Source: an uncultured Bacteroidota bacterium
Lineage (GTDB): Bacteria; Bacteroidota; Bacteroidia; Bacteroidales; DTGW01
Length of the DNA stretch: 64,000 bases
Reading direction: 5' to 3'
Assembly (NCBI GenBank): GCA_963851385.1
Contig: CAWKPE010000010.1
Span: 199,269 to 263,268 of the forward strand
Shown here one piece after another: positions 28,299 to 55,089 of this stretch (the stretch's first letter is position 1; the number at the start of each line of letters is the position of its first letter). Below the pieces are notes generated by a model. It had not been told where the DNA came from. It saw only the letters and a program-made list of their open reading frames with translations, and did not search any database. The translations under genes and the position numbers were made by a program.

Positions 28299-28370
28299 GA
28301 ATTTTTTTCTTTCTAAAATATTAACATATTCTTATTCTTATTATTGTGTATTGATTCTTTTTTCTTTAAA

Positions 28371-28904
28371 CCCCATACCTCTTAAAAAAGGTAATTTCCT
28401 AGATTATGGTACATTCTAAATCCCTTCCAAATTTAAATGTCACATATTCAATTATTTTTTCTCTACCTTTTTCTTAAAAAAAAGTAGCCAAAATTCAAGA
28501 AAATCTGAAGCTTCAACCCACAAGGCTCCCGCACCCTCGCCAGATTTTCAGGCCCACGCACACCGGCCTTTGTCCGGTTTTGGGGAAGTGCTCAAAATAA
28601 ACATTAGTCGCCATTGAATATGAACTAAAATAAATTAATAGCTAGCCAATGTGTAATGGCTTTTTCACGGATGGTGCGGAAAGCAGGTTTTGATGCATAA
28701 GTTCTAATCATTAAAAAAACAATGAATTTATTTATGTGCCACTTCTCTCAATTTACATGCAAAACCGAAACCTGATTTCTTCATTCGTGGTGACTTTTTT
28801 TGTTACTTTTTTTTATGGCAGAAAAAAAAGTAAATTCCAGTATGATAAGAACGTCATTATTTTGTGCCAATATCTAGGAAATTATTCTTAAAAAGGGTCT
28901 GGGG
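28371..28904 (-). mobile_element. structured intergenic repeat, copy A (shares ~85-nt core with 35069-35457 and 54684-55089)
   Basis: Imperfect terminal inverted repeats (…aggtaatttcctagat / atctaggaaatta…, ends cccca / tgggg). The core gtagccaaaattcaagaaaatctgaagcttcaaccc...ccctcgccagattttcaggcc aligns with the reverse complement of copy B. Confidence 0.6.
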
Positions 28905-29073
28905 TTAATTATGTAAAATAATTTAAACATTAACCGAAAAATTATTTTATAGAACCAATAGCTAATAGCCAACAGCCCTTTTGTTAATAAAATTTTTAAT
29001 GATTTTAACGTTGCATTCAAAAAGAAAACTTAGTAGTAAGTACCTTTAGAAATTATTTATAAAGAAAAAACAA

Positions 29074-35068: not shown

Positions 35069-35457
35069 AATTAATGTGAGTTCGACGAAATAAAAAATGT
35101 ACTTATCAAGTAATCAGAATTATGTTCATTTCTTTTTTCGCCAAAAAAGAAACGAACCAAAGAACTTAGCGGAGCGATCTCACGAACGAAGTGAGTAAAA
35201 AGGCTTGGTTGCAAAAACTCGCTCCTTCGCCATTTGGCGTATTCGCTCAAACAGCTTGCAACCGAAAAGGAATTTATTTTTAATCCCGCCGAAGGCGGGA
35301 AAGAGCGTTGGCCAGAAAATCAGGCGAGGGTGTGTGCGCATTGCGGGTTGAAGCTTCTGATTTTCTTGACTTTTTGGTTACTTTTGTGTCAAGACAAAAG
35401 TAACATATTGATAACAATATATTTATATTCATTTCTTATGTCGAACTTACGTTAATT
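35069..35457 (+). mobile_element. structured intergenic repeat, copy B (MITE-like, ~389 bp)
   Basis: Terminal inverted repeats aattaatgtgagttcgac / gtcgaacttacgttaatt. It holds several internal hairpins. A 46-nt block (ccaaagaacttagcggagcgatctcacgaacgaagtgagtaaaaag) is identical to copy C in reverse orientation. ORF 35234-35455 inside it is judged spurious. Confidence 0.7.
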
Positions 35458-54683: not shown

Positions 54684-55089
54684 ATAATTAACTTCAGTTC
54701 GATATAAGAAAATGTTTAAATATTTTGTTTTAAACACTTTACCTTTTGTCTTGACACAAAAGGTAACCAAAAAGTCAATCCCGCCTTAGGCGTGATGAAG
54801 CTTCCACCCACGAGCTTTCGCACACTCGCCAGATTTTCTGGCCAACGCACTTTCCCGTTTCACGGAAATTAGAAGAGAATTCCTTTTCTGCTGCGTGCTT
54901 CCCGAAATTTCGTGATGAGCAAAGGCGGCAGCCGGAGTTCACGCAGCCAAGTCTTTTTACTCACTTCGTTCGTGAGATCGCTCCGCTAAGTTCTTTGGTT
55001 CATTTCTTTTTTGACGAAAAAAAGAAATGAATAATATTCTGATTATCTGTAATAAGTATGTTATCTTAGGTCGAACTCACGTTAATTAT
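54684..55089 (-). mobile_element. structured intergenic repeat, copy C (inverted relative to copy B)
   Basis: Terminal inverted repeats ataattaacttcagttcgat / gtcgaactcacgttaattat. It shares the 46-nt identical block and the GAAGCTTC...CTCGCCAGATTTTCTGGCC core with copies B and A. Confidence 0.7.

Follow-up and report, generated by a model that had tools for sequence, protein, structure and literature searches.

Dispersed folded repeats and miniature inverted-repeat transposable elements (MITEs) are well known. In the following, we describe a folded repeat unit of ~125 nt that is carried by three such elements in the genome of an uncultured Bacteroidota bacterium (4.18-Mb assembly in 35 contigs, 91% complete). 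The three elements, A (28371–28904), B (35069–35457) and C (54684–55089), lie in a stretch of 64,000 nt (C10:199269–263268), referred to as the window, in which all positions without a contig or locus name are counted. They were first located, at these coordinates and correctly, in a reading of the sequence alone (the sequence-only reading). That reading did not bring out the pseudoknot, the triple-type register of the A-run, the second, inverted hairpin unit of each element, the IS982 type of the ends of B and C or the occurrence of the unit over the phylum, all of which are described below.

The closest published objects to this unit are the BoxC/PIT/TMECO motifs, intrastrand triplex repeats described to date for Proteobacteria (Holder et al., 2015; PMC4666352). 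Like the present unit, they are dispersed and intergenic, and on one of their strands, a pyrimidine arm is joined by a purine arm and by a further purine segment in mirror image of this purine arm. TMECO motifs are, however, G/C-rich, consist of 9-nt blocks with 3-nt loops and have no pseudoknot, whereas the head of the present unit is A/T-rich and capped by a 6-bp helix between its loop and a hexamer, with the third segment following a 3–5-bp extension of the stem without a loop. The TMECO consensus, CCCTCNCCC N3-6 GGGNGAGGG N3 GGGNGAGGG, accordingly does not fit the head, which is A/T-rich and lacks loop 2.

Other known systems resemble the elements in part. The REP/BIME/REPIN repeats of Proteobacteria, which are associated with RAYT, are likewise intergenic, multicopy mosaics of hairpin modules that occur as inverted doublets and tandem clusters, keep their hairpins by compensatory change and have been proposed to protect upstream mRNA from 3'-exonucleases; the present units differ in being longer (~125 nt), in having a pseudoknot and a triplex-type register, and in residing inside DDE-type MITEs. 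The Correia elements of Neisseria (CREE/NEMIS) are MITEs with an A/T insertion target that fold once transcribed and influence how neighboring mRNAs are processed and how stable these are, but there the terminal inverted repeats (TIRs) make the fold and RNase III cuts it, whereas here the folded module is internal and independent of the TIRs. As to IS982-derived MITEs, the likeness lies in TIRs of 14–16 bp identical to those of a 1.1-kb IS982-family element, a length of 200–400 bp without an open reading frame (ORF), 4-bp AATT flanks and the existence of several subfamilies with only the ends in common; the interior of the A/B/C type, by contrast, consists of folded modules that are also found with other ends and is not a deletion derivative of an insertion sequence (IS).

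Among functional RNAs, the unit, if modelled on the strand favored below, would resemble the H-type pseudoknots of telomerase RNA and the SAM-II riboswitch, in which a U-rich loop 1 lies in the major groove of stem 2 and forms U.A-U and C+.G-C triples. By analogy with the 3'-end triple helices of ENE and MALAT1, it would stand at a 3' end and be able to block decay. These are single-copy functional RNAs or of eukaryotic or viral origin, whereas the present unit is a dispersed bacterial repeat with a predicted structure. Rfam 15 yielded no match at gathering score for the window and only noise at E values up to 10 for element B, and in text searches of the literature we did not find a triple-helix pseudoknot repeat described in Bacteroidetes. 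The unit apparently belongs to a family of pseudoknot-capped repeats that extends over the phylum and is not yet catalogued, and it is no ordinary MITE interior.

Architecture and covariation of the unit

Elements A, B and C have a core in common that goes well beyond chance (pairwise BLAST E = 1e-17 to 1e-9), with ~100 nt of it present in all three. The sequence-only reading had recognized this core but set it at ~85 nt and took the family to comprise three elements; the shared unit, referred to as the type-I unit, measures ~125 nt, and a profile of the three cores (nhmmer) finds 16 copies in the genome. We describe it in the orientation it has in element A, as the sequence-only reading did, and call this the modelled strand. 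In element B, it is composed as follows:

35280–35406, − strand (modelled): type-I unit of B (P1, pseudoknot, P2, GGCCAACGC motif and P3), matching the covariance model R1 with 138 bits; fold z-score −5.8
35285–35299, no strand assigned: P3, GC hairpin cccgcc gaag gcggg, whose sequence differs among copies
35305–35313, − strand: GGCCAACGC motif, reading gcgttggcc on the + strand; near-invariant in alignments A1 and A2
35314–35366, no strand assigned: P2, arms 35314–35323 and 35357–35366, with a 33-nt loop containing GAAGCTTC
35365–35370, no strand assigned: pseudoknot strand CTTGAC, complementary to the P1 loop GTCAAG (35388–35393)
35371–35376, + strand: T(U)-run tttttg, CAAAAA on the − strand; candidate third strand along P1
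35377–35404, no strand assigned: P1 hairpin, arms 35377–35387 and 35394–35404, loop 35388–35393

On the modelled strand, the unit begins with P1, a 10–12-bp A/T hairpin in which CTTGAN is the loop, the 5' arm is rich in pyrimidines and the 3' arm in purines; it is the hairpin that had already been noticed ahead of the core. The subsequent linker consists of a C and then 5–7 A, and hence forms a U-run on the other strand. All six bases of the P1 loop pair with a hexamer N'TCAAG, 6–7 nt off, giving a pseudoknot of 6 bp. Then follow P2, a 9–10-bp stem that closes a C-rich loop of 33 nt (and not ~45 nt, as first estimated), the conserved motif GGCCAACGC and, finally, P3, a GC hairpin of variable sequence. 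P1, its fully paired loop and the candidate third strand are referred to as the head, and the remainder of the type-I unit as its body.

We built the covariance model R1 and evaluated the pairing in alignment A2, which contains 70 distinct copies from 58 loci. In it, 93.6% of the cells are paired, compared with 68.6% in shuffles and 44–58% with slid partners, and 25 of the 26 pairs show double changes; these percentages count sequences, not events, and the statistics do not consider phylogeny. P1 is 97.4% paired, with double changes at nine of its ten pairs, and P2 98.3%, with double changes at every pair. The lowest value is found for P3 (75.5%, double changes at 5/5 pairs), while the pseudoknot reaches 92.9%, its variable N:N' pair being UA (24), CG (22) or AU (7). 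A mutual-information scan over all column pairs ranked exactly the P1, P2 and P3 helices at the top, together with one unpredicted pair, namely the last base of the P1 loop with the N' that precedes TCAAG; within the 33-nt loop, it gave no further pairs. Loop and hexamer come in four matching variants: CTTGAC/GTCAAG, CTTGAT/ATCAAG, CTTGAA/TTCAAG and CTTGGC/GCCAAG.

The same is seen at different evolutionary distances. In this genome, a structure-blind MAFFT alignment shows three variants of the P2 stem (ctg/cag, ttg/caa and cag/ctg), all of which pair. The sequence-only reading had correctly contrasted gaaaatcAg/cTgattttc in B with gaaaatcTg/cAgattttc in A, and the compensatory change it saw there is real, but two positions covary within the genome instead of a single one. 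In the related complete genome G007, P2 reads AGATCATCCG/CGGATGATC versus AGAAAATCTG/CAGATTTTC, i.e. with three more double changes at unchanged loop length, and in the named genomes listed further below, the stem has 9 bp but unrelated sequences. Judging from these alignments, the helices and the pseudoknot are kept by compensating mutations, many more than the initial suggestion of a preserved pairing could draw on, and the fold is under selection; it outlasts the complete turnover of stem sequences between genomes.

These results also bear on annotation. An ORF called at 35234–35455 spans P2 and P1, and the copies are distinguished across it by indels that would shift the frame and by stem changes that compensate one another; it is therefore very unlikely to be coding, as had been suspected. 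Likewise, several long 'empty' intergenic regions and the spurious ORFs inside them are explained.

The third-strand register and the possible acting strand

Beyond these helices, the linker stands in a fixed relation to P1. If the length of the linker is subtracted from the distance between the loop and the boundary G, which ends the A-tract of the 3' arm, the result is 1 in 102 of 114 unique heads; this rule is valid across arm lengths of 6–11, while the bottom 3–5 bp of the stem are free to vary. Furthermore, a G in the linker has its counterpart at the mirrored position of the 3' arm, a G paired to C, in 15 of 21 cases, compared with 0–9 of 20–22 in other registers, and in 13 of 14 when the base beside the pseudoknot is excluded. 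A direct-repeat relation between linker and arm, considered in place of the mirror relation, fails in G-containing heads. The unit thus has the layout of an intrastrand triplex, with a pyrimidine (Y) arm, a complementary purine (R) arm and a mirror-repeat third block consecutive on one strand. By these regularities, the A-run and the A-tract of P1 correspond base by base, which points to the run as the third strand of a probable triple helix. A mirror relation is not made by replication errors; it is the mark of a third strand that is read against a duplex.

The type of triple depends on the strand. The modelled strand would give A.A-U and G.G-C triples (purine motif). The opposite strand would give U.A-U and C+.G-C triples, which are canonical, and its U-run, placed in the P1 major groove, would serve as loop 1 of an H-type pseudoknot. 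Purine-motif triplexes are known for DNA but reported not to form in RNA, while those of the pyrimidine motif do (PMC4666352). The canonical triples, an excess of G.U pairs and a sense-strand bias together hint that the strand opposite to the modelled one, i.e. the + strand for B and the − strand for A and C, would be the acting one. Specifically, the P1 mismatches of 167 heads include 20 that would be G.U on the opposite strand and 8 that would be G.U on the modelled strand. Between co-directional flanking genes, the opposite strand is the sense strand in a ratio of 27:13 for heads across the phylum and of 31:14 for type-I units.

Carriers and distribution

Elements A, B and C are non-autonomous mobile elements (MITEs), and each of them holds two hairpin units inverted to one another; in other words, they are inverted doublets of pyrimidine/purine hairpin units. 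Apart from the type-I unit of B given above, their features are:

28369–28906, no strand assigned: element A, a MITE of another type than B and C, with 35-bp inverted ends AACCCCAKACC..TAATTTCCTAGAT at 28369–28404 and 28872–28906
28460–28584, + strand: type-I unit of A (R1 match of 118 bits), with P1 at 28463–28487, linker and pseudoknot strand at 28488–28499, P2 arms at 28498–28507 and 28541–28549, GGCCCACGC at 28551–28559 and P3 at 28563–28577
28803–28833, − strand: second Y/R hairpin of A, ttacttttttttatggcagaaaaaaaagtaa, with a T-run before it on the + strand; inverted with respect to the type-I unit
35069–35457, no strand assigned: element B, a MITE with IS982-type ends by its TIR pairs and the AATT flanks at 35069–35072 and 35454–35457
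35073–35086, + strand: left TIR of B, AATGTGAGTTCGAC, matching the ends of the 1.1-kb IS982-family IS of genome G135 (L206)
35124–35164, + strand: second hairpin unit of B, 'Head-2', as read from the sequence (14/15 stem pairs), with Y arm 35124–35138, loop CGCC, R arm 35143–35157 and linker CAAAGAA 35158–35164
35165–35202, + strand: module X of B (cttagcggagcgatctcacgaacgaagtgagtaaaaag), within a 49-nt block identical in B and C
35440–35453, − strand: right TIR of B, GTCGAACTTACGTT, by TIR pairing
54686–55087, no strand assigned: element C, an IS982-type MITE by its ends, inverted with respect to B
54736–54871, + strand: type-I unit of C, degenerate (R1 score of only 69.7 bits)

Head-2 shows the mirror relation as well: its linker CAAAGAA mirrors the arm segment AAGAAAC, with the linker G at the mirrored position of the C-G pair; no pseudoknot partner was seen for it in the sequence of B.

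As the sequence-only reading had stated, B and C have common TIRs (AAYGTGAGTTCGAY), and the ends of A differ from them; these TIRs are of the IS type. Over their full length, B and C are 77% identical (BLAST against the genome), and the full-length relatives of B, at 77–79% identity, are C, two copies on C33 and one on C19. Despite this divergence, a block of 49 nt (35154–35202 in B; 46 nt in the first count) is identical in the two. It includes module X (35165–35202 and 54953–54990), which also occurs in G007 (L031 1445–1482 and 1815–1852), where it is inserted inside the linker of the head, between the A-run and the pseudoknot hexamer; module X is apparently a separate small insertion module. 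In the unit of C, the pseudoknot strand lacks its 3' part and P2 its 5' arm, a GC hairpin, tcccgccttaggcgtga (54779–54795), having replaced both, so that the P2 stem is broken. Two sister copies (C33:38927 and C19:65805) have the 5' arm of P2 likewise swapped for a GC hairpin, TCCCGCC-TTAG-GCGGGA, which is of the same kind as P3 of B (35285–35299). It is not an abundant mini-repeat, as TCCCGCC..GGCGGGA has just eight copies in the genome.

The ends of B and C, TTAACGTGAGTTCGAY, are found in pairs ~210, 347 and 385–400 bp apart in this genome, and the three resulting size classes have only ~20 bp at each end in common. At least ten copies have AATT on either side; as it is invariably the same palindrome, it may belong to the end and not be a target duplication. 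The 210-bp family (eight copies, 82–96% identical, at C15:44478–44687, C18:175333–175542, C23:35118–35327 and five further sites) and the 347-bp family (C12:273327, C21:26216) have only the IS982-type ends in common with B and C and do not contain the folded unit.

Among the 201 genomes of the order, 40 contain these ends, in many cases where a contig stops, and the search for an autonomous element bounded by them, which the sequence-only reading had proposed, led to genome G135. There, TTAACGTGAGTTCGAY bounds an intact IS982-family IS of 1,106 bp (G135:C57; L206 196–1301) with ATTTT on either side, whose transposase of 310 aa scores 247.8 bits against the NCBIfam model NF033520 IS982 (cut-off 130). 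Because their TIR equals that of this element, B and C are, to judge by their ends, IS982-type MITEs. Contigs in three further genomes (G127, G184 and G073) end in the same TIR, which suggests a multicopy IS there. A tblastn search of the 91%-complete assembly of this genome with the G135 transposase found no IS982 transposase; repeated IS copies often drop out of metagenome-assembled genomes (MAGs).

Other copies have other ends. The left-end sequence of A recurs in copies on C7 and C12, on the latter also inverted, whereas the copies C32, C33b and C18b constitute a 325-bp family with no recognizable TIRs, and in genome G109, the unit resides inside a MITE with a third type of TIR, GGCTAAATCTTTTTTTGAGGTG. 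The kinds of MITE ends that accompany the module are hence at least three and unrelated to each other, and no single transposase can need it. A role in transposase recognition, one of the functions first suggested, is thereby discarded; some units, moreover, have no TIRs at all. By contrast, the suggestion of a MITE family with swappable ends holds in both its parts, as the elements are MITEs and one folded module is found inside these different TIR families. An alignable empty site was not found for insertions of the A, B or C type; at the locus of A, the flanking genes are syntenic in genome G001 of the same genus, but the spacer is apparently ~200 bp versus 919 bp, as judged from a single 15-bp match in intergenic DNA too diverged for an alignment.

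Of ten genomes of the family, seven contain the type-I unit; in the order, 26 of 201 do (with 1–16 copies and a patchy distribution), and in a wider phylum sample, 10 of 400. Hits also occur in Sphingobacteriales- and Cytophagales-type genomes. Named carriers include Pedobacter planticolens (96 bits), Mucilaginibacter, and MAGs of the Flammeovirgaceae, Cyclobacteriaceae, Lentimicrobiaceae and Bacteroidaceae. The head alone is commoner than the type-I unit and is joined to at least one other body type; a pattern scan finds it across Bacteroidota and in Balneolaceae/Fodinibius and Ignavibacteriaceae.

In four genomes (G007, G066, G449 and G378), type-I units form same-strand tandem arrays. The arrays have periods of ~300–370 bp (L031 1408–2239 in G007; L208 11406–12135 and 13535–14253 in G449; L054 in G066), and most of their units, if read on the modelled strand, run antisense to the genes at their sides. 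G066 also harbors an array of orphan Rhs-type C-terminal toxin cassettes (L055; G066:C110:1–6100), each beginning with MHPVSYTYQPNTNPANHRYGYQGEFAEKDRETGFNHF and followed by small genes; one type-I unit is located just upstream of every cassette and is thus part of the duplicated cassette junction. Furthermore, G-rich intrastrand triplex motifs similar to BoxC/TMECO, for example ccctctcc tag ggagaggg ccg gagagagg, are found directly upstream of heads in G007 (at about L031 1385–1418, 1755–1788 and 2090–2123) and are scattered in the genome studied here (C18:282810, C15:27478, C21:33179 and C25:19405).

Possible functions

We give roughly even chances to the proposal that the module works as an RNA fold on the U-run strand and blocks exonucleases in read-through transcripts. 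Placed in the P1 major groove, the U-run would form U.A-U and C+.G-C triples, and the resulting pseudoknot-triplex would constitute the 3' end of the unit. Where a neighboring gene is transcribed beyond its end into the element, 3'-to-5' exonucleases would stall at this compact 3' structure, and the transcript would thereby be delimited or stabilized. As the two units of a MITE are inverted, one of them would be productive in either direction of transcription. A more specific form of this proposal is offered tentatively, as it may well not hold: the head might be a bacterial RNA triple-helix pseudoknot with 6–8 consecutive U.A-U and C+.G-C triples, spread through Bacteroidota by MITEs of several kinds as a portable 3'-end cap against exonucleases, and the type-I body, in which the 9-bp stem is constant and the 33-nt loop conserved, might be a platform on this cap that binds protein or RNA.

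Several observations weigh against an RNA fold on this strand. If only one copy per intergenic region is counted, the sense bias falls to 23:14 (p = 0.19), and the orientation check against flanking genes that the sequence-only reading had called for shows no consistency among 15 copies of this genome. In A2, G.U and A.C mismatches are about equally frequent (13:12 in P1 and 5:4 in P2), and a DNA-level palindrome would look alike. The alignments A2 and A3 were fitted to the model, which favors the modelled pairs, and the fold is not kept everywhere, as there are degenerate copies such as C, which has lost one P2 arm, and C18:118440, which has lost the head. Lastly, for the modelled geometry to hold, all 6 nt of the loop would have to be paired, and the third strand would have to join the stem 3–5 bp below its last triple.

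Some simpler roles were discarded. The unit is not an intrinsic terminator, as no T-run follows P1 or P3 on either strand, and the Bacteroidetes promoter motif TAnnTTTG occurs in only some P1 arms, with no −33 box at the right distance. The leader or untranslated-region element of a single gene family, or a small RNA (sRNA) tied to one gene, does not agree with the mixed neighbors and orientations of the copies.

The most serious alternative, which we regard as possible but less probable than an RNA fold, is a module that acts at the DNA level. Here, single-stranded or supercoiled DNA would fold into the hairpin and, with A.A-T and G.G-C triples on the modelled strand, into an intrastrand triplex as in BoxC/TMECO; this could be the substrate of a structure-specific enzyme by which the units are copied, in the manner of REP and RAYT, or an obstacle to replication or recombination that promotes rearrangement. 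It would account for the nearly pure Watson-Crick pairing with G.U no commoner than A.C in A2, and for the many stem changes that are transversions and allow no wobble intermediate. The succession of Y arm, R arm and R linker in mirror layout is, moreover, that of TMECO, for which a DNA triplex is reported in vitro (PMC4666352), although TMECO has 3-nt loops between its arms, whereas here the linker directly follows the stem. The occurrence of units with unrelated TIRs, without TIRs (as in the C32/C33b/C18b type) and in same-strand tandem arrays also speaks for it, as do the BoxC-like motifs beside the G007 heads and elsewhere in this genome. On the other hand, a candidate enzyme was not found. 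No Y1 (RAYT) transposase gene lies beside the 16 copies, with no search made for PF01797. The 20:8 wobble asymmetry and the gene-orientation bias, too, favor one strand, which a double-stranded signal would not do, but single-stranded DNA could.

It appears rather improbable that the units are selfish, functionless passengers, whose palindromes are kept or re-created at the DNA level, for instance by template switching within inverted repeats or by gene conversion between copies, and whose covariation was inherited from a few founders. This would fit the near-identity of stems within a genome, with differences mostly between genomes, as well as the degenerate copies and the counting of sequences instead of events in the pairing percentages. 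Yet template switching generates inverted and not mirror repeats, which leaves the mirrored G and the length rule unexplained. The same is true of the complementarity between the loop and the distant hexamer in four variants, and of a length and architecture that stay constant across orders while the sequence turns over completely.

Least probable is a small RNA gene with its own promoter in each unit, acting in trans on other transcripts or proteins via the conserved 33-nt loop: the single-stranded stretches GAAGCTTC..CCC..CGC and GGCCAACGC are indeed conserved, and multicopy sRNA families such as FopS exist in Bacteroides (PMC11697453), but the upstream sequence varies with the carrier MITE and has no conserved promoter-like motif at a fixed distance, a U-tract terminator is missing as described above, and FopS and GibS differ in architecture, FopS consisting of a single-stranded seed and a terminator and being in Rfam, where the present unit has no match.

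Irrespective of how it acts, the unit is unusual in two respects: different orders of Bacteroidota have retained a pseudoknot with a probable base-triple register while the stem sequences were completely replaced, and transposon ends that are unrelated to one another have acquired the unit. An action as RNA would make it a compact 3' structure, borne by transposons, with an influence on how stable neighboring messages are, in a phylum whose post-transcriptional control is poorly understood; it could then also be a tool to stabilize transcripts in Bacteroidota. Should the triple-helix cap prove true, transposons would have distributed a prokaryotic equivalent of the triple helices of ENE and MALAT1.

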